Assembly: GCA_963806975.1 (NCBI GenBank)
Contig: CAWEAK010000005.1
Coordinates: forward strand, 164,855-228,854
Direction of reading: 5' to 3'
Source: an uncultured Spirochaetota bacterium
GTDB taxonomy: Bacteria; Spirochaetota; Brevinematia; Brevinematales; JAOACQ01
DNA length: 64,000 bases
A model generated the notes under the pieces. The model saw only the letters and a program-made list of their open reading frames with translations. It did no database searches and was not told the origin of the DNA. Each line of letters begins with the position of its first letter. The first letter of the stretch is position 1. Below are positions 8,128 through 57,444 of the stretch, piece by piece. Both the position numbers and the translations under genes were made by a program.

Positions 8128-8159
8128 GTATCATTTGATACATATGTATCAAATGATAC
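8128..8159. promoter_or_regulatory. 32-bp double palindrome, putative enhancer (UAS) copy A
   Basis: GTATCATTTGATAC-ATAT-GTATCAAATGATAC, a perfect inverted repeat. Confidence 0.75.
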
Positions 8160-8281
8160 GGAATATTTTAATTTTTTATATTTTGTTAAAATTTTGAGTA
8201 TTGACAATTGTAATTTTATAAGCAGACAATATAAGTAAATAAATATAAATCGCGGAATCAAATATATCTCATTTGTAATTA

Positions 8282-8297
8282 TGGTATAATTATTGCT
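8282..8297 (+). promoter_or_regulatory. Putative sigma54 -24/-12 promoter A
   Basis: TGGTATAATTATTGCT = GG-N10-GC. Confidence 0.7.
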
Positions 8298-8434
8298 GAA
8301 AATATTGCTGTGTGATGGATAGAATTGTGCTTAATACTGAGTTGCAGTCATAACAACCATTGTATAATTCAGCTTCAGCATGGTATTTATTATTATCTGC
8401 GAAAAAAAACAAAATAAAAAATGGGAGCTTTGAT

Positions 8435-11400
8435 ATGAAATCAGGGATTTTTTTATTCAGTATATTTCTATTCCTTTCGCTTTATTCCTGTGGGACACAG
8501 AAAATAACGGAAAAGTACAAAATCACCGATATTTCCGGTTACTCGGAAGGCAGGGCAGCTTTTCAGGCCTACAACCGCTGGGGATATCTCGATCAAAAAT
8601 GGGAGATCGCAGTTTCACCCCAATTTATGGAAGCCGGTAAATTCTCCGAGGAACTTGCTCCGGTTTTATTGAACAAGAAATGGGGCTACATAAGTACGGA
8701 CGGAAAATTTCAGATTAATCCGCATTATGAAAGAGCGGAAGAGTTCTCTGAAGGTCTTGCGGCTGTGGAAGAGGATGGATTGTGGGGATTATATCGATAA
8801 ATCCGGTAAAATTATAATCAAGCCCCAGTTTGACGGAGCTAAACCTTTCCAGAGCCGGAGGGCGGCTGTCGAGACCGGAGGAAGATGGGGTTATGTTAAC
8901 CATGACGGACTTTACCGGGTAAATCCAACATTCGCTGATGCTGCTTCCTATGAGAACAATTACGCTCTTACTGCATATAAATTGGGAAAGGACGGCTGGG
9001 GCATTATCAATGATAAGGGAGAATACATAATGCGTCCTGATTTTGACGATGGACTTCCTTTTTCCGATGGACTGGCCGCGGTCAAGGATGATGAGTTATG
9101 GGGATTCATCGATTCAAAAGGCAGAATTGCAGTTAATCCGCAATATGAGAGTGCTCTTTCATTTTCAGAAGGGCTTGCTCCGGTTCGATCCGGTGGGAAA
9201 TGGGGCTATATCAATAAAGAAGGCCGGGTAGTAATTCCTTTCCAATACGATAATGCCGGAATATTTTCAGGGGGATTTGCAGCAGTAAAGACACCTGAGT
9301 ATTTACAGTATATTGACAATTCAGGCAAAGTCCGCTATCAGATTCAGATTATACAGGATAACGGTAGTACTGTTAAGGCTCAGACTTTGAATCTGCAGGG
9401 GAAAAAACCCTGGCAGGAATACGCTATTCCTCTCTGGGAAAATAGCGACATGAGCGGAGGCTTCAGGGACATGACTCTCCATAGTTTCGGTGCACTCGAC
9501 AGTCTGATAGAGCTGCATCAGAACCTGGTAAAGATTACATACCGGGTAAACGTTAACTTCAATATGGGAGCGACTGTAAATACGAATACAAATAGTGCAA
9601 GCTGGGCCAAAGTTACGGAAGAAGAACTCAGATTTAAAGACAGGGCTTTTTCCGATACCCCCTACTATACGATGGTTAATCCCAGGATTATATCTGACGG
9701 TACTTTCATTTATATATTCGGTCTGGGAAGCAGAGCTGGAGTAAGGGATAAAGTTTATTTATATTGTTTTAAATACGGATTAAACGGCGGTGCGAAACTG
9801 GTTTCCGTTCCTGAAATCCGGTGCATTACAAATATTCAAAACAACCGGACAAATATAACCTTTGATTATAAAGATAATGATGGACATTATTACTATCTTG
9901 AGCCTTTTATGTATGAATTGGCTGGATTGGGCGGGAAGAAAGGTCTGGATGCAAACGCCTCATATTCCGTTAAGCTTTTACTTACCCTTGTGGAGGGTCA
10001 GAACCGATGGATTGTGTCTTATGGCTGTAATCCGGACAATGTCAGCCAGGTCAGAATCCTGAATTTCAGAAAGGATGAAAAGAGTGGGCTTCCGACTCTT
10101 GAAGATTATAAAATTAAGTTCTATAATGAATCGAACCGCACCGCTGAAGTAATAACACTTCCAGGTCTGCAGAAATGCACAATCTATGGAGCCGGCTCAT
10201 CCCTAACAAATGAAGATACTGTTGATCCCCTCAATTTCAAGATAAATTTAAAAAAGTCGCTCATTTCAGAAATAGGCGTCAGCGGTGAATATTATGTCAT
10301 CAGAGAAAACATAACAAATGGACAGGGAAACACCAGCGCTCTGCCTGCCGAAACGCTGCCGTTATTACCTGGCTTTCGGGACGGATGAGCCCAAAGATCA
10401 TTATACGAATAATACAACACCTTCTTTTTATAGTTTTAAGGTCCTAAACAGCGGTTTGATTATGCCGGATGTACCGGAAGGCGCTGATCCAGCCAACTCT
10501 TTAGTTCAATTTTATGAAGATCGAAACAAAGGATTTGACGGTAATTCGGCTCGCAGCAGAAGCTGTCCGATGCTATTCGGTAGTATGGACGGTTACCTGC
10601 ACCTATATTTTTCAGGTGTGAATAAAGGAGATTACTATTTAAACTATTATACACCGAATAATACAAGAAAATTCCTGGAAAAAATGGTTTATAGTGAGAT
10701 AATACATCAGGTTATATATGACCCGGCCATCGGAAAATTTATAGATGGAACTATCCCGGTTAATGAAAATCTGAAGCAGATTGAGCCTAAATGGAATTCG
10801 AAAATCAGCGAGTACCATCCTTTAAACAGTGATTACGGCGGCTGGTATCATCTTGAAAGAAACGGAAATAAAAGCATTGGATACATTTTAATCGGCGATA
10901 TGACCGCGATTGATTATCTTGGAAATTATGGAGACCATGTCAGGGGCCATTACTGGGCCGGAGGTTTTAATACAATCACAGATGGAGACAGAACCGTCAA
11001 AGATTTTTATTATAGATGGGAAAGAGGACTTGATGTTATTGAAACGATGGGATTAAAAACCGATGGGACGCAAACACGCGGATCGGTTTATCGTATTTCT
11101 AGAATGCGGAACCAGAGCTCAGGCGGGTCAACGTTTGTCGAAACGGTTTGCGATGATATTTCCGCGAAATATGTTGGAGACGCAGTTGTCAACGAGACTC
11201 TAATCGGTTATATCGAAGGTGCTCCGCCTGTTCCGGTTGTCAACATGGATATGAGGCCTAATTATGAAAAAGCCTCTGCCATTGATATAGCAAACCGTTC
11301 TACCGACGCAAAAATTTCAACCTTCGACAGGGAAATTGCTCCGGGTATGCTTTGCGAGGGTAAAGCCTCATTCCCGGCCGCAGGAATCCGCTGGAAGTTT

Positions 11401-12465
11401 GAAACGGAATACGGCTTCACCACCAAGAGAAAGGTTGAATCCGCCACAGAAACCCTTGATAAAAAAACAGTCTATTTCAGTTATAATAAAGGCGAAAAAA
11501 TGACCACCTGGGGTAATGCATTCGTGCGCGGAACTACTGCGAAAGTCTATGCTTTGACAAGAAGCGATAATACTGTTATTTCCTATCAGCTTGGAGACAT
11601 ACAGGATGATACAACAATTATGCCGATTACTTTTAAAATAAGCGATGATTATATCCGTCAGGGTGATCTTCAAAGCTATCAAAAGTTAGACAGGCCTGCG
11701 CTCGATTCAAAGATACAGGCTTCCGAAGCCAATTATCAATTTGTGTACGATGATATGAATCCCTATAATCTTGCGGTTGGAAGCGATGATTTTAAAGAAA
11801 CGGCAAAGATAAAGAACAGGCAGTTCCGCCAGAGTTACTGCTGGGCTTATGACGGCGACAATCAACTGATTAAGAACTATTCCTTCTCCGATGAAAACAG
11901 CTACGGCGGATCTTTCAGCCTGAAAACGGCTTTTGGTTTATACATTGCATGGGATGTTTCAGCCGGATTTATCATTCAAACAAAGATAGCCAGCGGAGAA
12001 TTGAGCGTCCTGGGTACTTTCAGGCTGAATGTTGCCCGTTCAAAGGGTGAGAAGAAAAGCGAAGCCATCAATTATAATCTGGATGCCTCCGGAGAAAGAC
12101 AGGGCATAAAACAAGGCGGGAAATGGACGAATCCGAATAAAATTTACGCTTATCATTTCTACACTTACTGTCTGGCTCAGGATGCCAATAATTTTGAGGC
12201 TTTCTTTAATGACGTTGTGGATAAGGACTGGCTGACGAATGACAAAAATCCTTATGCACATCATCAGGAAGCCAAACGTTTGAGAGAACTGTCGGGAAGG
12301 CATAGCGACCCCTGGCGTATAACATACCGTGTGACCGAAATTCATAAATGCGGCGACTCTACACTTGAAGCTGCAAATTTAGGGGTACCGGATAGTATTA
12401 ACGATGAGGAAGCCGGCCGGATTATAATTGAGGATATGACTAATTATTATCAGCAGACTGAATAA
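8435..12465 (+). CDS. Large WG-repeat lipoprotein (~1342 aa once two +1 frameshifts near 8790 and 10360 are corrected)
   Basis: Lipobox-like LSLYSC, about seven FSEGLAxV...WGYID repeats, long unassigned C-terminal region; removing one base at each junction gives WGYID and ETLRYYLAF. Confidence 0.7.
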
Positions 12466-12481
12466 AAAGGAGGATTATTCT

Positions 12482-13096
12482 ATGAAAAAGTGGTTAATTT
12501 TTATTTTTCTTACAATTCCGGTATTTACTTTCGCTGAAACATTGATAAATGCTGCCACAAACGGAGATGTTGCGTTTATCAAAAGTTATAAAGGAGACAT
12601 AAACAAAGCTGATACAAACGGAGTTACGGCTTTGATGTACGCCGCCCAATATGAACATACAGACGCTGTACTGGCATTGCTTGAGGCTAAGGCAAATGTC
12701 AACATGGCGGATAATTTCGGCTGGACTGCTTTAATATACGCGGCCGATCATGGTGACTCCGAGGCTGTTAAAGCTCTGGCCGGGGCTAAGGCAGAAATTA
12801 ACGTAGCGGATAATTTCGGCTGGACGGCTTTAATGTATGCGGCAGATAACGGCAAAACTGACGCGGTTTTGGCGTTGATCGAGGCAAAGGCAGATATCAA
12901 CATTATGGATAAATCCGGCATTACCGCTTTAATAACAGCGTCAAAAAACGGTCAAAAAGAAGCAGTCTTGGCATTGATTGGAGCTAAGGCCGATATAAAT
13001 GCTTCCGACAAAGAAGGTAAAACTGCTTTATATTATGCACACCTGTATGACAGACTTGATGTGGAGAAGGTTCTCATCGCCGCGGGAGCAAAATAA
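12482..13096 (+). CDS. Secreted ankyrin-repeat protein
   Basis: AGGAGG RBS, signal peptide, five GxTALMYAA...LIEAKADIN repeats. Confidence 0.93.
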   Translation: MKKWLIFIFLTIPVFTFAETLINAATNGDVAFIKSYKGDINKADTNGVTALMYAAQYEHTDAVLALLEAKANVNMADNFGWTALIYAADHGDSEAVKALAGAKAEINVADNFGWTALMYAADNGKTDAVLALIEAKADINIMDKSGITALITASKNGQKEAVLALIGAKADINASDKEGKTALYYAHLYDRLDVEKVLIAAGAK

Positions 13097-13227
13097 GAAA
13101 GACATGCTTTTTTGTGATTTATTCGCTGCTGATATAAAATAAAAAGCGATGAGTTTTTTAAAGTATTTAGGAGCCGGCTATAAAAATTAAAATTCATAAA
13201 TTTATTGCGGTTATCTTAATAGCTGCC

Positions 13228-16200
13228 ATGTTTCCTTTTTTAATCATATCCTGCGGTAAAATTTCGGGAAAAAATAGCCCTAAGGCTGTCAGGGGCATTT
13301 TGAACATTGAAAACATTGATATCGGCAGTTCAAAAGGCATAAGACTTGATGGAGAATGGGAATTTTACTGGGGAAAACTGCTGTCTCCTGAAGATTTTAC
13401 AAACGGTACACCTGATTATAAACCGGATTATATAAATGTGCCCGGTTTATGGGATCAAGCCGGTTTAATACGAAAAGAGGGTTATCCGCTGAACGGTTTT
13501 GCAACCTACCGTCTGGTTGTTGTTACAGGTTTTTCCAGTAATACAAATATTTCTCTCGGCCTGAACCTTCAAAACATCAAATCTGCCTATAAAATATGGA
13601 TTAGAGGAAGATTATTAAAGGCAGTTGGAAATGTTTCGGATGATCCCGGGAAAGCCCGATACAGGCACCAGCCCGAAGTAGTATATTTTAACCAGAATCA
13701 GAAAAATATTGAGATAATAATTCAAACGGCAAATTTCCGGAACCGGAGCGGCGGAATATGGCAGCCCATAACGCTGGGAACATCTGCCGTTATTACCGGC
13801 ATCAGGGATAAGATGCTGGGAATCGACTATTTCCTTTTCGGCAGTATTCTGATCATGAGCCTGTACCATTTCGGATTATTTCTGCTGCGCAGAAAGGATA
13901 AATCCACTCTATACTTCGGACTTCTCTGCCTGATTGTCGCCATCAGGATTACGATAGGCGGCGTGTTTCTGGCAGGAATATGGTTCCCGGATTTTCCCTG
14001 GGAACTTTACGCAAAATTGGATCCTTTAACCGTATTCCTCGTTATACCTGTTTTACTTCTTCATATAGAAAGTCTTTTTAAAAAATATTTCTGGCATTAT
14101 GCCGTAAATATTGCACTGGTATTTTCTGCAGTCTGTTCTTTAATTGTGATATCCACACCAGAAACTATATTCTATTATACCGAGCCTCCCAACCAGGCAT
14201 TTCTAATTCTAAGCTGTATTTATTTTTTGTATATTATCATAAGGGCATTTATTGACAAAGATAAAAGTGCACCATATTTTTTGACAGCATCATTGTTTTT
14301 ATTGATAGCAGGAATCAATGATGTATTGCAGGTTTCATTTGAGTTTCAAACCTTTGCGCTTTCCCCTGCGGCTATTTTCTTTTTTATCCTTATACAGTCT
14401 TATAATCTATCAAGAAAATTTGCCGGAGCTTTCCATTATGTAGAAACAATGTCCAGTGTAATTAAATTGAATTATAAAAAAACGAAAAAGCTTTTATCGG
14501 ATAACCAAGAGCTTCAGTCATTGAATCAGTCCAAAAATAACTTTATTGCCAATGTTTCTCATGAATTCCGGACGCCGTTAACGTTGCTGCTCTCCCCAAT
14601 TGAAGCAATTATTCAGGGAGAATATGGAGAAAGAATCAATAAAAGCGATCCTATATTTGATGCAATGCTTCACAATGGAAGAAAGCTGCTCAGGCTTATA
14701 AATAATCTGCTTGACTTTTCAAAGATTGAAGCAGGAAAGATAATTATGCATAAAGAAAGGACAGATATTTCCAGACTCCTGGAGTATTATGTTTCAACAG
14801 TGAAATCTACTGCCGAATATAGAAAGCTCAGCCTGGTTTTTAATGATAATAGTGATGGGATTATTGCTTTTATCGACCGGGACCTTATTGAGAAAGCGGT
14901 ATTCAACCTGATTTCAAACGCATTGAAATTTACACCTGCCGGCGGTTCAATTATCATTCAGCTGGATGATGCAGAAGCGCCCTTCGACTCCGCTCAGGGT
15001 GCGGTTAATAATGCGGCAGCGGACATTGAGCGGAGTCGAAATGCCGCTTATAGCAAATGTTTTTCTATTACCGTCAAAGACTCCGGAATCGGAATACCCG
15101 GGGAAAAACTGGATTTAATTTTTGAAAGGTTTGCACAGGTAGACAGCTCATCTTCAAGGAAATATGAGGGCACTGGAATTGGCCTGGCGCTGACAAAAGA
15201 AATTGTCGAACTGCATGGCGGTAAGATAACGGTAAAAAGCCGTGAAGGGAAAGGGTCGGCTTTTACGATTGTATTGCCTATTGAAGATTCAGAAAAGAAG
15301 GATGATTGGACTGAGGCTGCCGGCATGGTTGATGAAAATATAAATAAAATTTCACCGGTGCTATTATCAGATATAAGCCGGATTAAAAGTCCTGTTTCCG
15401 TTAATATAAAAGAAAAATTAACTGAGAAACAACAATCCATTCTCATTGTTGAGGATAACATTGAAATGATGGATTTCCTGAAAATATTTCTCGAAAAAGA
15501 ATATAATGTTCTCATGGCATATAACGGAAAAGAAGGTCTTGAAATAACTGTTTCAAGAAAGCCTGATTTAATTCTTTCTGATGTTATGATGCCGGAAATG
15601 GACGGTTATGAGATGACCCGCGAAATAAGGAATAATGAAGAATTAACAGGTATTCCGATTATCTTTCTGACCTCAAAGGCTGAAACAGCAATGAAGCTGG
15701 AAGGTCTGGAATTGGGAGCCATTGATTATATCGTAAAACCTTTCAACCTCGCAGAACTCTCGGCAAGGATAAAGGCTCAGCTTGATATGAAAAGCCTCCG
15801 TGATGAAGCGATCAGTCAGAAAAAAGCCCTGGAAGAAAGCATTAAAAAAAGAGAAACCGCCGAAAGAAATTACAGTGCAAGCGAAAATCGCTTTCAGGAA
15901 ATGGCTGAACTTATGCCGGTGGTAATAGCAGACCTGGATTTAAACGGTAAGATCAGGTATATGAACCGTCCGGGATTGGACCTGTTTGGAATTAAAGAAA
16001 AAATTAATATACTGGGCTTAGAAATATATGATTTTATTGAATCTTCCGATAGAGAAAAATTAAAAAAAGAACTTCAAAGAATAGCAAAAGAAGAAACTTT
16101 AGATTTGATCGGATGCAAAATACTCAACCATGAGGGATCAGGAATTAACACTCTGATAAAGATAGCCCCGCTTTTTGAAGATGATAAGGCAACAGGCTGC

Positions 16201-16524
16201 CGCATGACTATTATCGAGATTAAGTCTTTCCTTGAAAAAGCTCTTATGCCCGATGAAGGCTTTTTCAAGACCTACGGATTAAGTGAAAGGGAGAGTGAAG
16301 TTCTGAGAAATATTCTGAAGGGTTACTCAAACAAACAATTGCGCGAAAGATTGTTTATTTCGGAAAATACTGTAAAAACACATCTTAAGGCAATATATCA
16401 GAAACTCGGTATATCGAGCAGAGAAGAACTCTTCAATCTGATAAAAAACCAAATATCTAAAAATGTCAACCCTGATAACCTGATGATTTCTGTCCTGAAT
16501 TCAATAATTAAGAGTGAAGAATAA
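13228..16524 (+). CDS. Hybrid sensor/regulator: 7TM-DISM, HisKA, HATPase, REC, PAS, LuxR HTH
   Basis: LDGEWEFYWGKLL, seven TM helices, SHEFRTPL, NLISNALKFT, DSGIGI, GTGIGLAL, DVMMPEMDG, LSERESEVL...ISENTVKTHLKAIYQKLG; true start may be ATA at 13180. Confidence 0.93.
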   Translation: MFPFLIISCGKISGKNSPKAVRGILNIENIDIGSSKGIRLDGEWEFYWGKLLSPEDFTNGTPDYKPDYINVPGLWDQAGLIRKEGYPLNGFATYRLVVVTGFSSNTNISLGLNLQNIKSAYKIWIRGRLLKAVGNVSDDPGKARYRHQPEVVYFNQNQKNIEIIIQTANFRNRSGGIWQPITLGTSAVITGIRDKMLGIDYFLFGSILIMSLYHFGLFLLRRKDKSTLYFGLLCLIVAIRITIGGVFLAGIWFPDFPWELYAKLDPLTVFLVIPVLLLHIESLFKKYFWHYAVNIALVFSAVCSLIVISTPETIFYYTEPPNQAFLILSCIYFLYIIIRAFIDKDKSAPYFLTASLFLLIAGINDVLQVSFEFQTFALSPAAIFFFILIQSYNLSRKFAGAFHYVETMSSVIKLNYKKTKKLLSDNQELQSLNQSKNNFIANVSHEFRTPLTLLLSPIEAIIQGEYGERINKSDPIFDAMLHNGRKLLRLINNLLDFSKIEAGKIIMHKERTDISRLLEYYVSTVKSTAEYRKLSLVFNDNSDGIIAFIDRDLIEKAVFNLISNALKFTPAGGSIIIQLDDAEAPFDSAQGAVNNAAADIERSRNAAYSKCFSITVKDSGIGIPGEKLDLIFERFAQVDSSSSRKYEGTGIGLALTKEIVELHGGKITVKSREGKGSAFTIVLPIEDSEKKDDWTEAAGMVDENINKISPVLLSDISRIKSPVSVNIKEKLTEKQQSILIVEDNIEMMDFLKIFLEKEYNVLMAYNGKEGLEITVSRKPDLILSDVMMPEMDGYEMTREIRNNEELTGIPIIFLTSKAETAMKLEGLELGAIDYIVKPFNLAELSARIKAQLDMKSLRDEAISQKKALEESIKKRETAERNYSASENRFQEMAELMPVVIADLDLNGKIRYMNRPGLDLFGIKEKINILGLEIYDFIESSDREKLKKELQRIAKEETLDLIGCKILNHEGSGINTLIKIAPLFEDDKATGCRMTIIEIKSFLEKALMPDEGFFKTYGLSERESEVLRNILKGYSNKQLRERLFISENTVKTHLKAIYQKLGISSREELFNLIKNQISKNVNPDNLMISVLNSIIKSEE
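14983..15040. repeat. REP-like palindromic element inserted in frame in the HATPase domain
   Basis: Perfect 14-bp inverted repeat TTCGACTCCGCTCA ... TGAGCGGAGTCGAA. Confidence 0.8.
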
Positions 16525-16837: not shown

Positions 16838-16869
16838 GTATCATTTGACACAATTGTATCAAACGATAC
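16838..16869. promoter_or_regulatory. Double palindrome UAS copy B
   Basis: GTATCATTTGACAC-AATT-GTATCAAACGATAC. Confidence 0.72.
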
Positions 16870-17000: not shown

Positions 17001-17016
17001 TGGTATAATTTATGCT
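17001..17016 (+). promoter_or_regulatory. Putative sigma54 promoter B
   Basis: TGGTATAATTTATGCT = GG-N10-GC. Confidence 0.68.
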
Positions 17017-17087: not shown

Positions 17088-17987
17088 ATGTTAAGAAAAA
17101 TTTCAGCGTTTGTGCTTTTTATAATAATAGTATTCTTCACAAGCGGCTGCAACCTTATTGCAAACTTGTATAATTCTTCATCATCGATTTCGTCTTCCAG
17201 TTCATCTTCAGTAAGCTCCAGCTCATCTTCGAGTTTATATAGTTCGTCTTCCGTGAGCTCCAGTTCGTCATCGTCTTCCAATAGTATAACCAACTATACT
17301 GTTGCATTTGACAGCCAGGGCGCGACGACAGCGGCAAGTCCGGCTGTCATAACTGTGACTAACCCCGCAAAGACTGTCACTACTCTTCCGGCTGCACCTG
17401 CTAAGACAGCTTATTACTTTAGCGGCTGGTACACTGCTATAAACGGCGGTGGTACACAGTTTACAACAAACACAATAGTTGCATCCAATATAACGGTTTA
17501 CGCTTTTTGGACAGTGCCGTCCTCTCCAAGCTGGGAGCCTTCTTTAACAACTTACGCCAGTTTCACCGCCTCGCTGGTCAATGGCGTGGTTGCGCCGGAC
17601 GGGACTACTACCGCGTATTCTCTAAATGCCTGCGGTGGCGGACCAAACGCTTATTACGTGAAACAGACACTCTCACTTACTGTGGGCCAGCAATACCAGT
17701 TCGGTTATTTCGCTAAGGCCGGGAGTCTTGACTCTTTCTGGTTTAACAGCTCGGATTTTTCGATCGGGTTCAATCTGGCCACCGGGACCGTTTCCACAAA
17801 TGACCCGCCTACCGGTTCGATAGTCTCCTGGGGAATAACACCAATAACTAATGGATGGTACTACTGCTATGCGACTATTACCGTAAGCAACGCTTCAACG
17901 ACCTACTCTATCGGCTGCGATAATAGCGCACATTGGAGCTACACCAGTGGTGGGGACAACATTTACCTCTGGCAAGGGACGTATTAA
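17088..17987 (+). CDS. Array lipoprotein 1: Ser linker, InlB B-repeat, carbohydrate-binding/head-spike-like domain
   Basis: AGGAGG RBS, FTSGC lipobox, YTVAFDSQG...FSGWYT...ITVYAFW, then APDGTTTA...GWYYC...IYLW. Confidence 0.85.
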   Translation: MLRKISAFVLFIIIVFFTSGCNLIANLYNSSSSISSSSSSSVSSSSSSSLYSSSSVSSSSSSSSNSITNYTVAFDSQGATTAASPAVITVTNPAKTVTTLPAAPAKTAYYFSGWYTAINGGGTQFTTNTIVASNITVYAFWTVPSSPSWEPSLTTYASFTASLVNGVVAPDGTTTAYSLNACGGGPNAYYVKQTLSLTVGQQYQFGYFAKAGSLDSFWFNSSDFSIGFNLATGTVSTNDPPTGSIVSWGITPITNGWYYCYATITVSNASTTYSIGCDNSAHWSYTSGGDNIYLWQGTY

Positions 17988-18083
17988 GCAGGATTTATAA
18001 AACCATAAAAAGTAATTATAAATTATTGATACAGTTAAAGAACTTAGATAAGCTTTTTTATGCAAAGATTTAGGAGGTGTAAA

Positions 18084-19265
18084 ATGTTAAGAAAAATTTC
18101 AGCGTTTGTGCTGTTTATAATAATAGTATACTTCACAAGCGGTTGCAACCTTATTGCAAACTTGAATAATTCTTCATCATCCAGCAGTTCTTCAAGCTCT
18201 TCACTTGGGTCCAGCAGCAGTTCAACCAATTCCTCTTCCGTAAGCTCCAGATCGTCTTCTGCAGGCTCCAGCTCGTCGTCTTCGTCGTCGTCCAGTTCTT
18301 CTTCCACCGGCAGCGTTACTCTTTATATCTCCGGTGTTGACCATAACGGCTATACCTGCGTATGGAGAGTTGCCATTAACGGGACTTCCACGAATATTAC
18401 TGAAAATATTGTGGCGAACTATATCGCGCCTAATTTAAGAGCAATGTCGCTTGCGAACGGCACCCTTTATTTAGCCGGAGAAGATAACAGCGATATTGGC
18501 TGTTACTGGACAATTTCGACAAACGGAGGAACGGCAACGGAACATTCTGTTAGTGTTTCCGGTTATCTGGGGTGGGCGGGTTATGATCCAGGCGGGAACT
18601 TTTGGTGTTCCGGCGCTCAGAGCAGTACTTATGATTATTATATTGAGAATGGCGGTGCTGCAACCTATTTTCAAACAGCAACACCCTGGGATTCTCCGGG
18701 AAATATGGTGTTTTCCGGCGGCAGTAGTTTTGCATTTTGGGGTGGAAATTCCTTAGGGGGTTATGTTTCAAATTTAACTGTAGTTTCAGCATTGCCTGGT
18801 TCAGCTTATTACGGCGGAATAGCGGTGAATAATGGAATTATCTATATAGACGGCATGGACACCAGCGGCACAACCTTTACAGTCTGGGTATCTTCAAATA
18901 ACTGCGCTTCATATAATTCCATCGCTTTAAATGGAACTGGTGCGATTTCCTACGCGATTCCATTCTATTCGGGCTCATACCTGTATGTTCCCGGCGCAAC
19001 GCTTTTGCCTTACCATCCCTGTTATTGGACAATAAACACTTCCTCAGGGATTGCTACTCAATACCAGTTAAATTATAAGAATTCATACGGCGGATGGGTA
19101 TATTCTATAACCTATACCAACAACACGGTCTATGCTGCCGGATACGATATTAATGCTTCTGCTCTTAATTCTCAGCAGCCTGCCTGCTGGATCAACGGCA
19201 ATGAGATTGTCCTGGACTCCCTTGGTTCATCCTGGACTTATATGGCGCTGGTTGTGACTTATTAA
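18084..19265 (+). CDS. Array lipoprotein 2: Ser linker plus probable beta-propeller (type A)
   Basis: FTSGC lipobox, poly-Ser, repeats such as LYLAG...CYW and VYAAG...CWING. Confidence 0.85.
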   Translation: MLRKISAFVLFIIIVYFTSGCNLIANLNNSSSSSSSSSSSLGSSSSSTNSSSVSSRSSSAGSSSSSSSSSSSSSTGSVTLYISGVDHNGYTCVWRVAINGTSTNITENIVANYIAPNLRAMSLANGTLYLAGEDNSDIGCYWTISTNGGTATEHSVSVSGYLGWAGYDPGGNFWCSGAQSSTYDYYIENGGAATYFQTATPWDSPGNMVFSGGSSFAFWGGNSLGGYVSNLTVVSALPGSAYYGGIAVNNGIIYIDGMDTSGTTFTVWVSSNNCASYNSIALNGTGAISYAIPFYSGSYLYVPGATLLPYHPCYWTINTSSGIATQYQLNYKNSYGGWVYSITYTNNTVYAAGYDINASALNSQQPACWINGNEIVLDSLGSSWTYMALVVTY

Positions 19266-19435
19266 TAAAATTAATATTAGATTAAATTTAACGACGGAGG
19301 AGGGTCAAGCAATCTCGATAGTATATATCCGGAACAAACGGCGTTAATAGTAGCAGCGGGTATATTGTTATAACTTATTAATATACTTAAAGAAGTTAGA
19401 TAAAGTTTTCTATGCAAAGATTCAGGAGGTCTAAT

Positions 19436-20698
19436 ATGTTAAGAAAATTTATGGATCTTGTACTTTTTATGGTAATCGTATCATTTATAAGCGGCTGCAA
19501 TCTTTTTTCCGGGAATAATTCTTCATCATCTTCGTCTTCTGTAAGTTCCAGTTCTTCCGCTTCATCTTCCGTAAGCTCCGGTTCGTCGTCATCATCTATC
19601 GCTGGAACCAATACCATTACATTTGACAGCCAGGGTGCAACAACGGCGGCAAGCCCGTCTAATATAACCGTAATAACGCCGACATCGAATGTCGGTACGC
19701 TTCCATCAGCGCCGGCAAAGACAACTTATTATTTTGCTGGCTGGTACACAGCAACAAACGGCGGCGGGACACAGTTTACAGCAAGTACAGCAGTTACGTC
19801 AAATATTACTGTTTATGCATACTGGATAGCCTCAGGTTCTTCCTGGAAGGGCTTCTACACCTTGCCGTCAAGCGGCGGCACTTGGCAGTCAGTGACCTAT
19901 GGTAACGGTGTTTTTGTCGCGGTTGCCAATAGCAGCACAGCAGCGTATTCAACTAACGGGACAAATTGGACGGCCAGCACCCTGCCATCTTCTGCCAGTT
20001 GGCAGTCAGTTACATATGGGAACGGTCTTTTTGTAGCGGTTGTCTATGGCGGTACAGCGGCGGCGTATTCAACCGATTACGGAAAAACCTGGACGTCCTG
20101 TAATCCCCTTCCAAGCTCTGCCGATTGGAATTCTGTAACTTACGGAAACGGCGTTTTTGTAGCGGTTGCTTTTGGAGGAGCAGCGGCGGCGTATTCAACC
20201 GACGGGATAAACTGGACGTCCTACAACCTGACAGGCGCTGCCGATTGGCAGTCAGTGACATACGGAAACGGCGTTTTTGTGGCGGTTGCCGAACTCAGCT
20301 CAACGGCGGCGTATTCAACTGACGGGAAAACCTGGACGGCCTACACCCTGCCAGGCAGCTCTTTAAGGTGGAGTTCAGTAACTTACGGGACCCCGGGCGG
20401 AGTTCCCACATTTGTAGCGGTTGCCTTTAGCAGCACAACGGCGGCGTATTCATCCGATGGGAAAACCTGGACGGCCTGCACCATTCCAAACCCTTCTTCT
20501 TACTGGCAGTCAGTGACATACGGAAACGGCGTTTTTGTCACGTTAGCCGAAGCCAGTACGTCGGCGGCATATTCAACCGATGGGATAAACTGGACGCCCT
20601 GCAGCCTTCCAAGCGCTTTATCCTGGTATTCAGTGACTTACGGAAACGGCGCTTTTGTATCGGTTGCCTATACCACAGCGGTAGCGTATTCACATTAA
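19436..20698 (+). CDS. Array lipoprotein 3: InlB B-repeat plus WxSVTYGNGVFVAV repeat propeller
   Basis: ISGC lipobox, seven ~40-aa WQSVTYGNGVFVAV...AAYSTDGxxW repeats. Confidence 0.88.
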   Translation: MLRKFMDLVLFMVIVSFISGCNLFSGNNSSSSSSSVSSSSSASSSVSSGSSSSSIAGTNTITFDSQGATTAASPSNITVITPTSNVGTLPSAPAKTTYYFAGWYTATNGGGTQFTASTAVTSNITVYAYWIASGSSWKGFYTLPSSGGTWQSVTYGNGVFVAVANSSTAAYSTNGTNWTASTLPSSASWQSVTYGNGLFVAVVYGGTAAAYSTDYGKTWTSCNPLPSSADWNSVTYGNGVFVAVAFGGAAAAYSTDGINWTSYNLTGAADWQSVTYGNGVFVAVAELSSTAAYSTDGKTWTAYTLPGSSLRWSSVTYGTPGGVPTFVAVAFSSTTAAYSSDGKTWTACTIPNPSSYWQSVTYGNGVFVTLAEASTSAAYSTDGINWTPCSLPSALSWYSVTYGNGAFVSVAYTTAVAYSH

Positions 20699-21298: not shown

Positions 21299-21330
21299 GT
21301 ATCATTTGACACAATTGTATCAAATGATAC
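21299..21330. promoter_or_regulatory. Double palindrome UAS copy C
   Basis: GTATCATTTGACAC-AATT-GTATCAAATGATAC. Confidence 0.72.
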
Positions 21331-21450: not shown

Positions 21451-21466
21451 TGGTATAATTTATGCA
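21451..21466 (+). promoter_or_regulatory. Putative sigma54 promoter C
   Basis: TGGTATAATTTATGCA = GG-N10-GC. Confidence 0.68.
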
Positions 21467-21521: not shown

Positions 21522-22682
21522 ATGTTAAGAAAACTTTTGGCTGTTGTGCTTTTTATGATACTCATATCCTTTACCGGCGGATGTTATCTTGCAGAACATT
21601 GGAATGACTCATCGTCATCCAAAAGTTCGTCATTATCTTCACTTGGATCCAGCAGCAGTTTCTTCATCTTAAGCTCCGGTTCGTCGTCTTCGTCGTCTAG
21701 TTCTTCTTCCGCCGGCAGCGTTACTCTTTATATTTCCGGTGTTGACCATAATGGTTATACCTGCGTATGGACGGTAGCCATTAGCGGAAATACCACGAAT
21801 ATTACAGAAACTATTCTGCAGTCAACAACAGGTAGCGGAACAGGATATATGTCACTCAAGAACGACACTCTTTATATAGGAGGATATGATGGGTTGCTTA
21901 ATGGGGTTTACTGGACGATGAAGACTAACGGCACCTCTATTAATAAAAACGTGGTTTGTTCAACGAGTCAATATGGAGCTAATTTGAACTGGATTGGATT
22001 CGACCCAAGCGGAAACCTCTGGTATACCGGGAGCGAATCAGACATTAGCGCATACTATTGGGAAAACGGCACCGCGACCGCGATGCCGACATATTATTCA
22101 GGAGAATGGGCTACAGCAGGCAATATGGTGTTTTCCGGCGGTAATTATTATACACTATGGGGAGGCAATTACGCGGGGACCCTCATTATAAACGGGACCG
22201 CCGTTGCGTTTCCGACTTCTATCGGTTATTTCGGCGGAATAGCGGTGAATAACGGGATTATATATATCGACAGCATGGATACTACAGGCCTGAACTATAC
22301 CGTCTGGATATCTTCTAACAATGGCGTTTCCTATAGTTCCAAAGTATTGGGAATGGGTATGGATGGTTATTCAATCCCGTTCTATTCCGGATCATATCTC
22401 TATGTTCCGGGCGCGACGACATATCCCAGCGGGACACCCTGTTACTGGAAGATAGACGGCGGTTCAGGCAGCGCTACTCAAATTACGCTTGGTAGTAAGA
22501 ATCCATACGGGTATGTAAATTTTATAATTGTTACGAATAATATGGTCTATGCCGCGGGCCAGGACCAGCAGGTATCAGGTTCCAGCCAGCAGACTGTCTG
22601 CTGGATCAACGGTATTGAGATTGTCCTTGATAGCACCCTTAGTGCTAATCAGGGAAATAATACTATCGTTGTAACTTACTAA
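21522..22682 (+). CDS. Array lipoprotein 4: type A propeller, paralog of lipoprotein 2
   Basis: TGGC lipobox; shares GSVTLYISGVDHNGYTCVW and IPFYSGSYLYVPGAT with gene 2. Confidence 0.85.
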   Translation: MLRKLLAVVLFMILISFTGGCYLAEHWNDSSSSKSSSLSSLGSSSSFFILSSGSSSSSSSSSSAGSVTLYISGVDHNGYTCVWTVAISGNTTNITETILQSTTGSGTGYMSLKNDTLYIGGYDGLLNGVYWTMKTNGTSINKNVVCSTSQYGANLNWIGFDPSGNLWYTGSESDISAYYWENGTATAMPTYYSGEWATAGNMVFSGGNYYTLWGGNYAGTLIINGTAVAFPTSIGYFGGIAVNNGIIYIDSMDTTGLNYTVWISSNNGVSYSSKVLGMGMDGYSIPFYSGSYLYVPGATTYPSGTPCYWKIDGGSGSATQITLGSKNPYGYVNFIIVTNNMVYAAGQDQQVSGSSQQTVCWINGIEIVLDSTLSANQGNNTIVVTY

Positions 22683-22862
22683 TAAAATTAATATTAGATT
22701 AAATTTACCGGCGGAGGAAGATCAAGCTATTTCAATCCTTACGGTACACATATATCCGGAACAAACAGTGTTAATACCGGCAGAGGGTATATTATTATAA
22801 GTTATTGATACATTTAAAGAAGTTAGATAAAGTTTTCTATGCAAAGATTCAGGAGGTGTAAT

Positions 22863-24074
22863 ATGTTAAGAAAATTTATGGGTTTTGTGCTTTTTATGAT
22901 AATCGTATCATTTATAAGCGGCTGCAACCTTTTTTCCGGGAATAATTCTTCATCATCTTCGTCTTCTGTAGGTTCCAACTCGTCATCATCTTCTATCACC
23001 GGAACTTATACCGTTACTTTCGACAGCCAGGGTGCAACAACGGCGGCAAGCCCGTCTAATATAACCGTAATAACGCCGGCATCGAATGTCGGTACGCTTC
23101 CATCAGCGCCGGCAAAGACAACTTATTATTTTGTCGGCTGGTACACGGCAACAAACGGCGGCGGTATACAGTTTACGGCAAGCACTGCAGTTATATCTAA
23201 TATTACAGTCTATGCATATTGGATAGCCTCGGGTTTGACCTGGGCGGCCTGTAATCCCCTTCCAAGTTCTTCCAGTTGGCAGTCAGTGACTTACGGTAAC
23301 GGTGTTTTTGTAACTGTTGTTTATGGCGGTACAAATGCGGCGTATTCAACCGACGGGGTAAACTGGACAGCCTGCTACATGCCAATCGCTAACCATTGGT
23401 ATTCAGTAACTTACGGTAACGGCGTTTTTGTCGCGGTTGCTCAAGCCAGCACAACGGCAGCGTATTCAATTGATGGAAAAACATGGACGGCCTCAAGCCT
23501 TCCAAACAATACCTGTCAATCAGTGACTTACGGTAACGGCGTTTTTGTAACGGTTCCAAACGGCATAACAGGGGCGTATTCAACCGATAATGGAAAAACA
23601 TGGACGTCTTGCAATTCCCTTCCAAGCCAAGTCTCCTGGCAATCAGTCACCTATGGGAATGGTGTTTTTGTAGCTGTTGCCTCTGGCACATCAGCGGCAT
23701 ATTCAACCGATGGGAAAACCTGGATGCCCAGTCCACTTGGTTTGCCAAGTGCCTCTTGGTATTCAGTAACCTATGGGAACGGCGTTTTTGTGGCAGTTGC
23801 CGGAAATGGCACAACAGCGGCGACTTCTCCCGACGGGATTACCTGGACACAACGAACTCTGTCAAGCCCTGCCAACTGGCAATCAGTCACCTATGGGAAC
23901 GGCGTTTTTGTGGCGGTTGCCGGCGGCGGTACAAATGCGGCGACTTCTCCCGACGGGATTACCTGGACGGCTCAAACTCTGCCAGGCTCTGCCAATTGGT
24001 ATTCAGTGACTTATGGAAACGGCGTTTTTGTATCGGTTGCCTCTGGAAGCACAATGGCGGCGTATTCACATTAA
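22863..24074 (+). CDS. Array lipoprotein 5: InlB B-repeat plus GNGVFVAV repeats, paralog of lipoprotein 3
   Basis: ISGC lipobox, N-terminus nearly identical to gene 3, seven repeats, ends AYSH. Confidence 0.88.
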   Translation: MLRKFMGFVLFMIIVSFISGCNLFSGNNSSSSSSSVGSNSSSSSITGTYTVTFDSQGATTAASPSNITVITPASNVGTLPSAPAKTTYYFVGWYTATNGGGIQFTASTAVISNITVYAYWIASGLTWAACNPLPSSSSWQSVTYGNGVFVTVVYGGTNAAYSTDGVNWTACYMPIANHWYSVTYGNGVFVAVAQASTTAAYSIDGKTWTASSLPNNTCQSVTYGNGVFVTVPNGITGAYSTDNGKTWTSCNSLPSQVSWQSVTYGNGVFVAVASGTSAAYSTDGKTWMPSPLGLPSASWYSVTYGNGVFVAVAGNGTTAATSPDGITWTQRTLSSPANWQSVTYGNGVFVAVAGGGTNAATSPDGITWTAQTLPGSANWYSVTYGNGVFVSVASGSTMAAYSH

Positions 24075-26034: not shown

Positions 26035-26066
26035 GTATCATTTGACACAATTGTATCAAATGATAC
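26035..26066. promoter_or_regulatory. Double palindrome UAS copy D
   Basis: GTATCATTTGACAC-AATT-GTATCAAATGATAC. Confidence 0.72.
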
Positions 26067-26185
26067 GGTTTGTTTACTTTTTTATCTTTATTTAAAAAAT
26101 TTATATAAAAAAGCTATGGTTTTATTTCCAGATGATATAAGGAAATAAAAATAAATTGAGGAATTGATTGTACCGTTTGGGATTT

Positions 26186-26201
26186 TGGTATAATTTATGC
26201 T
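26186..26201 (+). promoter_or_regulatory. Putative sigma54 promoter D
   Basis: TGGTATAATTTATGCT = GG-N10-GC. Confidence 0.68.
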
Positions 26202-26257
26202 CATTATATAAAGTATTCCCGGTGTAATTATTGCTGTTAAGATTCAGGAGGAATAAT

Positions 26258-27409
26258 ATGTTAAGAAAAATTTTGGCTCTTGTGCTTTTTATGATAATCA
26301 TATCCTTTATCAGCGGCTGTAACCTTATTGCAAACTTGAATAATTCTTCATCATCGAGTTCATCTTCAGTAAGCTCCGGCTCGTCTTCGAGTTTATATAG
26401 TTCGTCTTCCGTGAGCTCAAGTTCGTCATCGTCTTCCAATAGTATAACCAATTATACTGTTGCATTTGACAGCCAGGGCGCGACGACAGCGGCAAGTCCA
26501 GCTGTCATAACTGTGACTAACCCCGCAAAGACTGTCACTACGCTTCCTTTACCGCCGATTAAGACAGGCTTCAATTTCGCAGGCTGGTATATTGCTACAA
26601 ACGGCGGCGGTACACAGTTTACAACAAACACAATAGTTGCATCCAATATAACGGTTTACGCTTTTTGGAATATCATCTTTAACTACACAGGCGCCGTACA
26701 AACATGGACTATTCCAAGCGGTGTGACTAAGGTAAGAATTACTGTTGCAGGTGCCGCAGGAAGTGATGGCTCTACTAATGATATTATTACCCCTGTAATA
26801 GCCGGAAAAGGCGGCATTATGACCGCAGATTTCTCAGTCACTTCAGGTCAGGTATTAAACCTGTATGTTGGCGGACTCGGGGTAAATAGTACAAGTGGCG
26901 GATTTAATGGAGGTGGGCCGGCGATTCAAAGCGCTTCTTATGCAGGCGGCGGGGCATCTGATGTGCGCATCGGAGGTACAGCCCTCAACAACCGGGTTAT
27001 AGTTTCTGGCGGAGGCGGTGGATATGGCGGAAATGGAGGAATTGGCGGAGATGGAGCCGGTGTACTGAATGCAAACGGCGGTAATGGGCTTACCACGACT
27101 AATATAGCTCTTGAAAGTGGCGCCATTACAACAGGAGGCAGCGGCGGTACAGAATCGGGAGGTGGAACTGCCGGATCGGGTAATTGGGGAACTGGAACAG
27201 CAGGCACATTAGGACAGGGAGGTACCGGCTATCAATATGGAGGTAGTGGCGGCGGCGGCTACTACGGTGGGGGTGGGGGTGGATCTGATACTGAGGGCGC
27301 CCATGCCAGTGGAGGTGGTGGATCAAGCTACCTCGATCCTTCAGGCACATATATCTCCGGGACAAATGGAGTTAATACCGGTAACGGGTATATTATTATT
27401 AGTTATTAA
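26258..27409 (+). CDS. Array lipoprotein 6: InlB B-repeat plus glycine-rich domain
   Basis: N-terminus nearly identical to gene 1, then FNYTGAVQTWTIP...GGGASDVR...GGGGYYGGGGG...GGGGSSY. Confidence 0.87.
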   Translation: MLRKILALVLFMIIISFISGCNLIANLNNSSSSSSSSVSSGSSSSLYSSSSVSSSSSSSSNSITNYTVAFDSQGATTAASPAVITVTNPAKTVTTLPLPPIKTGFNFAGWYIATNGGGTQFTTNTIVASNITVYAFWNIIFNYTGAVQTWTIPSGVTKVRITVAGAAGSDGSTNDIITPVIAGKGGIMTADFSVTSGQVLNLYVGGLGVNSTSGGFNGGGPAIQSASYAGGGASDVRIGGTALNNRVIVSGGGGGYGGNGGIGGDGAGVLNANGGNGLTTTNIALESGAITTGGSGGTESGGGTAGSGNWGTGTAGTLGQGGTGYQYGGSGGGGYYGGGGGGSDTEGAHASGGGGSSYLDPSGTYISGTNGVNTGNGYIIISY

Positions 27410-27568: not shown

Positions 27569-27600
27569 GTGTCATTTGACACGATTGTATCAAATGATAC
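27569..27600. promoter_or_regulatory. Double palindrome UAS copy E (downstream -12 element deleted)
   Basis: GTGTCATTTGACAC-GATT-GTATCAAATGATAC. Confidence 0.7.
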
Positions 27601-27787
27601 GGTATGTTTATTCTCTTATCTTTATTTAAAAATTTATACAAAAAACATTATGGTTTTATTTCCAGATGATATAAGGAAATAAAAATAAATCTGGAATTGA
27701 TTGCACCGTTTGGGATTCTGGTATAAAGTATCACTGTTGGAATCGCACCCAATGTAATTATTGTTGTTAAGAATCAGGAGGAATAAT

Positions 27788-29562
27788 ATGTTAAGAAAAT
27801 TTTTGGCTATTATGCTTTTTATGATAATCGTATCCTTTACCAGCGGATGTTACCTTGTTCTCAACATGAATGATTCTTCGTCTTCCAGCAGTTCTTCAAG
27901 TTCTTCTGGCTTTTCTTCCAGCAACAGTTCTTCAATTATTACATCGGCTAATAACACTATATTTGCCTTTGGCTTAACGAGCGCACTTAATTCTGGGGCA
28001 GGAATAAATAACGATGTTACAGGGATCATCTCCAATACTAACATCAACTTGACCGTACCTTATGGTGCTATATTAACGAATCTTATAGCTGTATATTCAA
28101 ATACCGGGGTAACTGTAAAAATCGGTTCTAATATACAAACCAGCGGAGTAACGGCAAATAATTTTACAAGCCCGGTTATCTATACTGTTACGGCAGCCGA
28201 TGGTTCTACACGGAATTATGCTGTTACGGTAACGATAGCTTCAAGTTCAGCCAAAGCAATTACAGCCTTCAGTTTCACAAGCGCCCTTAACGGAGCATTG
28301 GCATAAGCAGCGATGTCGCGGGTGTAATTTCCGGAACTAACATCACTTTAAATGTGCCTTTTGGTACTGTTGTTACGAGCCTTAAAGCAACATTTTCCAC
28401 AACCGGAACTAATGTAAGAATAGGCACTACCACACAAACCAGCGGAGTAACTGCAAATTCCTTCACAAGTCCGGCGATCTATACCGTTACGGCTGCCGAT
28501 AATTCGACACAGAATTATTTAGTTACAGTAACAATAGCTCCAAATTCAGCCAAGGCTATTACTGCCTTCAGTTTCACAAGCGCTCTTAATTCGGAGCCGG
28601 TATTTCTTATGATGTTATAGGTATTACTAATGAACACATCTAAAACTATTACTTTAGCAATACATACAATACAGCAAGCAGTCTTAAGGCGACATTTTCA
28701 ATAAACGGCGCATCGGTTAAAGTGGGATCAACAGTTCAGACCAGCGGTAACTGCAAATGACTTTACAAGCCCGGTGTTTATCAGTTACTGCAGCCGTTGC
28801 TTGACCAGCTCAATGAATTATACCGTTTCAGCCCCACATAATCAACTAACTATTCGGCTACAGGCGGCCAGCAGGCATTTAACGTTCCGGCCGGAGTGAC
28901 TACTATATATGTAGATGCCGCTGGTGCCCAGGGGTCAGGCGGTAATAATGTATATGTTTGTAACAATGGACCAACGCCTCCTTATGGGAAAGGGGGTCGT
29001 GTACAGGCCTGGATAACGGTAACTCCCGGGGAGACTCTAAATATCTATGTCGGAAGTCAGGCAGGGTATAACGGTGGCGGATTGGGCAGGACAGCGTCCA
29101 CTTCCGTTAACACTTCAGGCAACGGCGGAGGCGAGGATATCAGGCAAGGCGGAACGGCTCTGACTTCACGCGTAATAGTGGCTGGCGGCGGCGGCGGCGG
29201 CGCGGACGGAATCAATGGAATTGGGGGCAGCGGTGGCGGAACCGGAGACATGGGAGCGGGTGGTAATGCTTCAGGTGTTGGGGCTCCCGGCACACAGGGA
29301 GGTGGCGGAGCCGGTGGTTTCGGGTAATTCTCGTGGAACTAATGGACAGGGTCGGCTCCCTTGGACAGGGTGGCAATTGGGGGACAAATACTGCTGGTAC
29401 CTCCGGTGGCGGAGGTGGCGGTGGTGGATACTACGGCGGAGGTGGCGGAGGATACGGTTATGACGGCGGTGGGGGCGGTGGCGGTTTAGCCTGGTACCGA
29501 GTGGTGGCACTGGCACATCCGGTTATCAAACAAGTGATGGTTATATAAAAATTTACTGGTGA
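27788..29562 (+). pseudogene. Array lipoprotein 7: three Ig-like (DUF5018-type) repeats plus glycine-rich domain, multiple frameshifts
   Basis: FTSGC lipobox, repeats AKAITAFSF...QTSGVTANxFTSPVIYTVTAAD, Gly-rich tail ending GYIKIYW*; split over ORFs at 27761, 28354, 28896, 29333. Confidence 0.7.
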
Positions 29563-29605
29563 TGTTAAGTTTGTTGATACTTTAAATAGTCTACAAAAAA
29601 TGGCC

Positions 29606-29637
29606 GTATCATTTGATACAAATGTATCAAATGATAC
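29606..29637. promoter_or_regulatory. Double palindrome UAS copy F
   Basis: GTATCATTTGATAC-AAAT-GTATCAAATGATAC. Confidence 0.72.
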
Positions 29638-29748
29638 GGAATGTCAATTCTCTTATCTTTATTTAAAAAATTTATACAAAAATATTTTTGTTTTTATATG
29701 CATATAATATATGAAAATAAATTAAAGGGAATACGACATTTATAGTTT

Positions 29749-29764
29749 TGGTATGATTATTGCT
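29749..29764 (+). promoter_or_regulatory. Putative sigma54 promoter F
   Basis: TGGTATGATTATTGCT = GG-N10-GC. Confidence 0.7.
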
Positions 29765-57441: not shown

Positions 57442-57444
57442 GTA

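Follow-up and report, generated by a model that had tools for sequence, protein, structure and literature searches.

At the NtrC- and NifA-dependent promoters glnAp2 and nifH, the upstream activating sequence (UAS) consists of multi-copy dyads for a Fis-type helix-turn-helix (HTH) domain, placed 100-200 bp upstream of a GG-N10-GC promoter. The extended σ54 consensus is TGGCAC-N5-TTGCW. A related arrangement is the Rrp2-RpoN-RpoS pathway of Borrelia, where lipoprotein genes are read by RpoS, whose own gene is the σ54 target, and where Rrp2 has no defined UAS. Here we describe a 64,000-nucleotide stretch of DNA from an uncultured Spirochaetota bacterium (hereafter the window) in which six copies of a pair of 14-bp palindromes stand ahead of lipoprotein genes, each pair followed by a -24/-12 (GG-N10-GC) box or its remnant. 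These paired palindromes are probably the UAS of an NtrC-type bacterial enhancer-binding protein (bEBP), most likely the protein that we call P0001, at σ54 promoters.

Francke et al. (2011, PMC3162934) associate σ54 promoters with lipoprotein, exopolysaccharide and flagellar genes and use the phrase "controller of the bacterial exterior". In Desulfovibrio vulgaris, genes for two-component enhancer-binding proteins co-localize with their σ54 promoters, and motifs were assigned in that way (PMC4641369). The genome studied here (G000) is a 2.46-Mb metagenome-assembled genome in 28 contigs, 58% complete, and the window corresponds to G000:C5:164855-228854.

Six paired palindromes in the window, five of them ahead of GG-N10-GC boxes

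The first-pass annotation of the window had listed six 32-bp double palindromes, and all six were recovered. The pattern GTRTCATTTGAYAC-N4-GTATCAAAYGATAC occurs at 8128, 16838, 21299, 26035, 27569 and 29606, which gives 12 matches (six sites, each on both strands) against 0.00 expected from 100 dinucleotide-preserving shuffles. The symmetric GTGTCA/TGACAC change reported for copy E is likewise present. In window coordinates the copies are as follows:

8128..8159: UAS copy A, two 14-bp palindromes (GTATCATTTGATAC and GTATCAAATGATAC) with a gap of 4 nt, exact match
16838..16869: UAS copy B, exact pattern match
21299..21330: UAS copy C, exact pattern match
26035..26066: UAS copy D, exact pattern match
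27569..27600: UAS copy E, first 14-mer with the GTGTCA/TGACAC change
29606..29637: UAS copy F, exact pattern match

Downstream of these elements lies the box TGGTATRATTWWTGC (TGGTATrATTwwTGC), with exact matches at 8282, 17001, 21451, 26186 and 29749, in agreement with the five of six copies annotated earlier. With up to two mismatches allowed, the window holds nine matches against 2.10 ± 1.32 expected. Measured from the end of the palindrome to the TGG, the spacers are 111-131 bp long, slightly shorter than the 113-133 bp first given, and they are A/T-rich as claimed, with G+C contents of 0.17-0.27 against 0.35-0.41 for the contig.

8282..8296, + strand: -24/-12 box A (σ54 type), TGGTATAATTATTGC, 122 bp past UAS A
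17001..17015, + strand: -24/-12 box B, TGGTATAATTTATGC, 131 bp past UAS B
21451..21465, + strand: -24/-12 box C, TGGTATAATTTATGC, 120 bp past UAS C
26186..26200, + strand: -24/-12 box D, TGGTATAATTTATGC, 119 bp past UAS D
27719..27731, + strand: remnant of box E, TGGTATAAAGTAT, with the GG retained and the -12 GC gone
29749..29763, + strand: -24/-12 box F, TGGTATGATTATTGC, 111 bp past UAS F

Boxes A and F read TGGTAT-N5-TTGC, and boxes B-D read TGGTAT-N5-ATGC. Copy E lacks the GC because, relative to copies B-D in the alignment, an 18-bp deletion between two TATAA repeats took out the -12 element. The window cassettes A-F are paralogous over about 300-560 bp; B-E can be aligned across the entire upstream region, and A and F match less closely. 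Since they are paralogous, the six cassettes do not represent six independent events, and the window taken alone would amount to about one independent observation.

The palindrome pair and the box recur together elsewhere in the genome

With up to one mismatch, the 14-mer occurs 26 times in the genome, and 21 of these occurrences fall into 11 paired loci, six in the window and five outside it. The chance figures that follow are our own estimates, from base composition for the 14-mer and from pattern density for its coincidence with the box. About 0.3 exact 14-mer matches are expected by chance, and a reversed-pattern control gave no matches. The remaining five occurrences are lone one-mismatch 14-mers, against about nine expected by chance, and by eye they appear to lie inside reading frames (the one at C15:127074 is within a CheA frame). 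The paired loci outside the window, with their targets, are:

C7:231174: perfect double palindrome, 11 bp past the P0001 stop codon; after a 146-bp spacer and the box TGGTATGCCCTTTGC, an operon for a single-domain receiver, a CheA-like Hpt/HATPase/CheW protein (two frames) and a REC-HD protein
C7:364317: pair with a degenerate second half; target at C7:364185 (- strand), a choloylglycine-hydrolase-family gene, an amidohydrolase and a permease
C15:102773: pair; target at C15:102939, a B12-binding/PAS/GAF/kinase-receiver set
C15:128290: pair; target at C15:128168 (- strand), CheA, a CHASE3 protein and a multi-HAMP chemoreceptor
C15:133621: pair; target at C15:133499 (- strand), a REC-PAS kinase and a PAS protein

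The box pattern TGG[CT]A[CT]N5[TA]TGC, searched on both strands of the 2.46 Mb, gave 41 matches, in ten cases with a palindrome pair starting 143-178 nt upstream; about 0.01 such coincidences would be expected by chance. The exact GG-N10-GC spacing is found at 10 of the 11 UAS-linked sites, the eleventh being copy E. Outside the window the boxes are TGGTATGCCCTTTGC, TGGCATATCTATTGC, TGGCATAGGAATTGC and TGGCATAGGAAATGC (twice), that is, TGGCAT-N5-TTGC or -ATGC and one TGGTAT-N5-TTGC. Judged by their sequence, the UAS-linked boxes would be acceptable variants of the extended consensus, those of the window being the weaker ones. The spacers outside the window measure 121-146 bp (G+C content 0.14-0.25), and at all 11 loci dyad sites in more than one copy stand 111-146 bp upstream of a -24/-12 box or its remnant. 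The σ54/bEBP layout that had been proposed for the window is supported by the five additional pairs, and the genome-wide scan found no pair away from a -24/-12 box or its remnant.

Window and non-window spacers are 0.51-0.65 identical, and shuffled sequence gives 0.59 ± 0.02; the spacers of copies J and K are paralogous to each other (0.88). Because the spacers are no more alike than shuffled sequence, we are dealing with five unrelated contexts that have only the two 14-mers, the box and the distance in common. This sharing across unrelated contexts is the main argument for the element being a UAS for σ54 promoters.

As central dinucleotides the copies have TT/AA, AA/TT or TT/TT, and 4 or 5 nt separate the two 14-mers; outside the window the dinucleotides are TT/TT or AA/TT, with a gap of 5 nt. 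The nested 32-bp palindromy described for the window is present there and is not conserved at the other genomic copies, which speaks against a long hairpin and in favor of one protein binding each 14-mer. The 32-bp symmetry is incidental, the two 14-mers being the conserved part. Their consensus is GTRTCR-WW-YGAYAC, usually with a T before it, and the centers of the two sites are 18-19 bp apart. Together with flanking bases the 14-mer often reads TGT-N10-ACA, the NifA UAS pattern. In all, the regulon comprises at least 11 promoters, 11 of about 30 plausible σ54 promoters in the assembled genome. A rough search for palindromes upstream of the other σ54 boxes revealed no second shared motif.

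Copies J and K lie in a duplicated promoter region with about 190 bp in common. Directly beside copy K, at C15:133777-135293 (L116:11777-13293), is a transposase pair of 160 and 342 amino acids, called IS3-type from a reading of the N-terminal sequence and divergent from the regulated kinase gene.

P0001 is the candidate activator

The genome contains one copy of rpoN (G000:C5:55.7 kb; L001:1516-1541), which has the RpoN box RRTVAKYR and is split by one extra base, as discussed below. Five genes encode a full σ54 interaction domain, and all five products have GAFTGA and a C-terminal HTH. There are three HU/IHF-family genes. The first-pass annotation had expected a single activator encoded outside the window, and one of the five, on contig C7, fits this expectation as a candidate by adjacency:

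G000:C7:229759-231162: P0001, 468 amino acids, with Response_reg, Sigma54_activat, AAA_lid_14 and HTH_8 domains

The AAA+ domain of P0001 matches PF00158 with E = 1.2e-61 and has GAFTGA in its sequence, PF00072 covers residues 3-112 and PF02954 residues 437-467, and the phospho-acceptor, as read from the sequence, is Asp51 in LILSD. A REC-HisKA-HATPase gene lies directly upstream. The double palindrome begins 11 bp past the stop codon of P0001, with a σ54 box and a receiver (REC) gene behind it. None of the other four bEBPs has a recognition helix like that of P0001, SRIQLYRRFK, which is common to the P0001 orthologues. From gene adjacency, P0001 is likely to be the cognate activator of the 14-mers.

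From this arrangement we infer a scheme of binding, kinase input, looping and σ54 dependence. Each 14-bp palindrome would bind one bEBP dimer, the two sites together forming the UAS. The activator, most likely P0001, would be phosphorylated, probably by the REC-HisKA-HATPase protein encoded just upstream, and would then assemble on the UAS, loop over the 111-146 bp of A/T-rich spacer to RNA polymerase-σ54 on TGGYAY-N5-WTGC and open the promoter using ATP. Expression of the WG-repeat lipoprotein operon and of about ten paralogous lipoprotein genes would start from the six window cassettes, and that of signaling operons and one hydrolase/permease operon from the five promoters elsewhere.

The motif and P0001 in related genomes

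A scan of 60 relatives did not turn up the exact double palindrome, and a metagenome scan returned a single locus, which is an unrelated AT-rich simple repeat. With the motif present in one genome, no phylogenetic footprint is possible. P0001 homologues occur in the sister genus at 56% (G010), 46% (G011) and 57% identity (G008, which is without the receiver). The same-genus genome G001, which is also without the double palindrome, has no close P0001 orthologue, its best match being 41% identical. A search of named genomes with P0001 returned distant bEBPs only, at most 53% identical over part of the sequence, and no close orthologue.

Two of these homologues are informative for the layout. At the G010 orthologue, the bEBP stop codon is followed by an 18-bp perfect palindrome, about 120 bp, TGGCATATTTATTGC and a receiver gene. 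At the G008 homologue, two site pairs, each with an 18-bp period, lie about 95-140 bp upstream of TGGCAC-N5-TTGC boxes. In pair 1 both halves read TGTA-N8-TACA, and in pair 2 the first half reads TGTA-N8-AACA; the outer TGTA/TACA and the 18-bp period are in common with the present motif. As far as sequence comparison goes, these layouts support assigning the sites to the bEBP subfamily of P0001, by the argument from co-localization on which enhancer-binding proteins are usually matched to their sites in published regulon reconstructions (PMC4641369).

The G008 locus itself (L024; G008:C1:912638-916561) encodes the receiver-less activator homologue, 318 amino acids long, with three σ54 boxes within 1.5 kb, which suggests a compact local regulon. 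In G010, the local palindrome type GGCACA-NN-TGTGCC has a single perfect copy, so that no regulon was drawn there.

Weighing of the assignment and of competing explanations

Several observations, in this and the next three paragraphs, tell against a P0001-bound UAS at σ54 promoters. A center-to-center distance of 18-19 bp does not put two dimers on the same helix face. The window boxes have TGGTAT rather than TGGCAC, and at -12 three of the five depart from TTGC with ATGC. The lipoprotein homologues examined in relatives have no UAS and, within the fetched loci, no TGGYAY-N5-WTGC box, and a paralogous lipoprotein gene at C7:395958 in the genome itself keeps the leader with neither UAS nor box. 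Thus, σ54 control is not intrinsic to the lipoprotein family; on the sequences compared, it seems to have been recruited recently, after which the cassette was amplified.

The alternative that survives best keeps the same UAS and σ54 architecture and has a different bEBP bind it, the site adjacent to P0001 being just another target. P0001 is tied to the palindrome by adjacency, there are four other bEBPs with GAFTGA and an HTH, and, the genome being 58% complete, further bEBPs may exist beyond the assembly. Also, the recognition helix of the G010 orthologue is that of P0001 except for the first residue, yet its neighboring palindrome differs (CGGCAC-AT-GTGCCG), which weakens the inference from helix to site. 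We nonetheless consider a different bEBP improbable: the genome scan found no palindrome near any of the other four bEBP genes, the order of stop codon, palindrome, box and REC gene is kept at G010, paired sites with the same 18-bp period occur at G008, and the motif and a close P0001 orthologue are both missing from G001.

A second alternative is that the window promoters are σ70 promoters of the extended -10 type, with the palindromes bound by a CRP/FNR-type regulator or by the LuxR-HTH regulator of operon A. All the window boxes overlap a perfect extended -10, TGGTATAAT in A-D and TGGTATGAT in F; copy E has TGGTATAAA. A simple σ70 scan called no -35/-10 pair at box B, which argues against such a promoter there, but extended -10 promoters can do without a -35. 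The 14-mer fits the NtcA-type GTA-N8-TAC consensus (PMC3898017), and its 7-2-7 geometry would suit a LuxR-type binder, such as the LuxR-HTH protein encoded at 13228-16524. However, none of the five non-window boxes contains a -10-like hexamer, and all have GG-N10-GC, so that the TGnTATAAT reading raised in the first-pass annotation fits the window family only and is not a common feature, whereas the σ54 reading is shared by all. The sites stand 111-146 bp ahead of the box and not at -41.5 or -61.5, where a CRP/FNR operator would be expected, and given these positions we consider the resemblance to the NtcA consensus to be probably coincidental. The only HTH_Crp_2 match in the genome is marginal (27.9 bits), and the LuxR domain is part of a 7-TM membrane protein. 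Replacement of σ54 by σ70 is on this evidence very unlikely; a σ70 start at the window promoters besides the σ54 start, for basal or dual transcription, is a live possibility.

Third, the regulon could be a fossil, with rpoN truly inactivated and the cassettes being recent relics or running on the overlapping σ70 signals only. The rpoN gene is split into 310- and 152-amino-acid frames by one extra base, which is not in a homopolymer and sits, by comparison with the intact 457-amino-acid frame of G001, between ...EKAKIL and IENLKSRK, that is, between the core-binding and DNA-binding parts. If this frameshift is real, the regulon could not fire; the gene is intact in all four relatives searched. 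Cassette E, moreover, is without its -12 element, and its gene is fragmented. On the other hand, both rpoN halves are otherwise conserved (the N-terminal open reading frame is 72% identical to the intact G001 gene, and there is no other stop), and ten UAS-linked boxes and five bEBPs are intact. Many unrelated genes in the assembly are split likewise, among them those for the WG protein (three frames), lipoproteins E and F, a CheA-like protein, an amidohydrolase and a GAF/kinase pair. For this reason we favor an assembly indel as the cause of the rpoN split, the alternative being that the gene was inactivated very recently, and we regard a fossil regulon as highly improbable. DNA contigs from sequencing runs, compared with the rpoN locus, gave no cover at the extra base. 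The split genes suggest an assembly with a high indel rate, and indels may explain the 58% marker completeness despite contigs of up to 446 kb. Overlapping frames are also seen at L113:7412-7461 and L114:3325-3378.

Finally, it is barely conceivable that the palindromes are non-regulatory (a mobile repeat, recombination site, hairpin or terminator). In favor of this, a 32-bp palindrome can fold, a terminator scan flags it on the minus strand, and two C15 copies lie beside an IS3-type transposase. Against it, the distance to a -24/-12 box is fixed for all 11 pairs across five unrelated contexts, conservation covers the two 14-mers and not the 32-bp symmetry, and the lone 14-mers within frames (five) do not exceed chance (about nine).

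The preferred reading, paired UAS sites for an NtrC-type activator at σ54 promoters, could be extended. It is possible, though unlikely, that one NtrC-type regulator has captured the whole surface coat, with at least ten lipoproteins and five sensory operons switching together by way of a lineage-only cassette of about 560 bp (UAS, bent A/T spacer, σ54 box, leader and signal peptide), and that the lipoprotein cassettes are under dual control. If so, the -24/-12 box lying over an extended -10 in the lipoprotein cassettes alone would create two control modes: basal σ70 reading would be blocked by the resting σ54 holoenzyme, and burst expression would follow once the activator fires.

Genes behind the window promoters and other features of the window

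The boxes had been described as standing ahead of lipoprotein genes, and the translations bear this out: the gene behind each of the six copies encodes a signal peptide with a lipobox cysteine (FxSGC or YSCG) at its end. An AGGAGG ribosome-binding site lies downstream of each cassette. The N-termini read MLRK...(F/I)(T/I)SGC followed by a poly-serine linker, with MKSG...LYSCG behind copy A, and are predicted to be lipoprotein signal peptides.

8435..16524, + strand: operon A, for a WG-repeat lipoprotein, an ankyrin-repeat protein and a hybrid histidine kinase
8435-8800, 8727-10388 and 10318-12465, + strand: WG-repeat lipoprotein in three frames (Pfam WG repeats)
12482-13096, + strand: secreted ankyrin-repeat protein of operon A (Pfam)
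13228-16524, + strand: 7TMR-DISM hybrid histidine kinase of operon A, with REC, PAS and LuxR-type HTH (Pfam)
17088..20698, + strand: operon B, three lipoprotein genes (17088-17987, 18084-19265 and 19436-20698)
21522..24074, + strand: operon C, two lipoprotein genes (21522-22682 and 22863-24074)
26258..27409, + strand: lipoprotein D, a Flg_new repeat and a glycine-rich domain
27788..29327, + strand: lipoprotein E, in at least three frames (27788-28306, 28354-28620 and 28896-29327)
29854..32547, + strand: operon F, a multi-frame first lipoprotein (29854 onward, 30054-30368 and 30295-31245), then an intact one (31330-32547)

The frames of the WG protein overlap at window positions 8727-8800 and 10318-10388. 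Lipoprotein E is either a broken gene or the product of assembly indels. Flg_new (Listeria-Bacteroides) repeats were found with Pfam in five array lipoproteins scanned, three of which also give weak EPTP-like matches. The internal genes of operon B retain the ribosome-binding leader and have neither UAS nor GG/GC. In the downstream genes of operons B and C, the leader is kept but TTATAAnTTATT stands in place of the promoters' GGTATAATTTATGC. Across the internal genes of the lipoprotein operons, GG and GC are lost exactly where the UAS is missing. Acidic "EDDDELEL" frames on the minus strand (16937-17293, 18044-18307 and 26122-26451) were rejected as genes, being no more than the poly-serine linkers read from the opposite strand.

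On their 5' side, UAS B, C, D and partly E share a conserved block of about 313 bp (16525-16837, 21000-21298 and 25721-26028). It contains a σ70-like ATTACA-17-TATAAT, a GGAG, a G+C-rich stretch and a hairpin, CCGGGCAG...CTGCCCGG. The block was not found outside this array, and Rfam gave no match to it; it may represent a small transcript or else the terminator module of the duplicated cassette. At gathering thresholds, the Rfam matches in the window are limited to the rRNA operon and two tRNAs.

Three further features of the window were noted. On the minus strand at 24851-25411, between cassettes C and D, are genes for an 82-amino-acid YgiT-type zinc-finger protein and a 103-amino-acid protein without a family match, a pair that looks like a toxin-antitoxin module. 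A 402-amino-acid frame at 42684-43892 has an unusual domain combination: residues 36-253 score against subclass B1 metallo-beta-lactamase models (142 bits, with a cut-off of 200) and residues 310-401 against BlaR1/class D sensor-domain models, all scores lying below the curated cut-offs. A complete rRNA operon (16S, two tRNAs, 23S and 5S) at 53768-59259 (- strand) adjoins an IS1380-family transposase gene at 60878-62248 (- strand).

Comparison with known systems

The system itself is of an ordinary kind, an NtrC-type UAS and σ54 promoter, on an unusually large gene array. It resembles the NtrC/NifA systems in having multiple dyads, a GG-N10-GC promoter and an AAA+ activator with a GAFTGA loop. 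Unlike in those systems, the targets are lipoprotein and signaling genes rather than genes of nitrogen metabolism, and the sites are only 18-19 bp apart. A limited literature search on the half-sites together with σ54 found no σ54 paper describing a GTATCA-WW-TGATAC site. New are the motif, as far as that search shows, the regulon's size and composition, and its growth by duplication of a promoter-plus-leader cassette.

As in Borrelia, an NtrC-type response regulator and σ54 are predicted here to stand over a surface-lipoprotein program. Unlike in Borrelia, each lipoprotein operon carries a UAS and a -24/-12 box of its own (a remnant in the case of E), so that control would be direct. The analogy with Borrelia drawn in the first-pass annotation therefore holds at the level of function, and the route would differ, by way of the UAS and not RpoS.

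The Desulfovibrio vulgaris regulons (PMC4641369) were backed by DAP-chip, electrophoretic mobility-shift assays and orthologous regulons across species, whereas the present motif is found in a single genome. For this uncultured bacterium, we can offer a concrete, testable regulon consisting of a motif, a candidate activator, the probable kinase of that activator and 11 target promoters. The array shows how a σ54 regulon can grow through a promoter-plus-leader cassette duplicated before different lipoprotein bodies. Compared with the general theme described by Francke et al. (2011), the difference is that one activator appears to serve tandem paralogous lipoprotein cassettes that were amplified along with their promoter. 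The array leaves the understanding of σ54 systems unchanged and provides a direct, UAS-based example of the association between σ54 and the cell surface.

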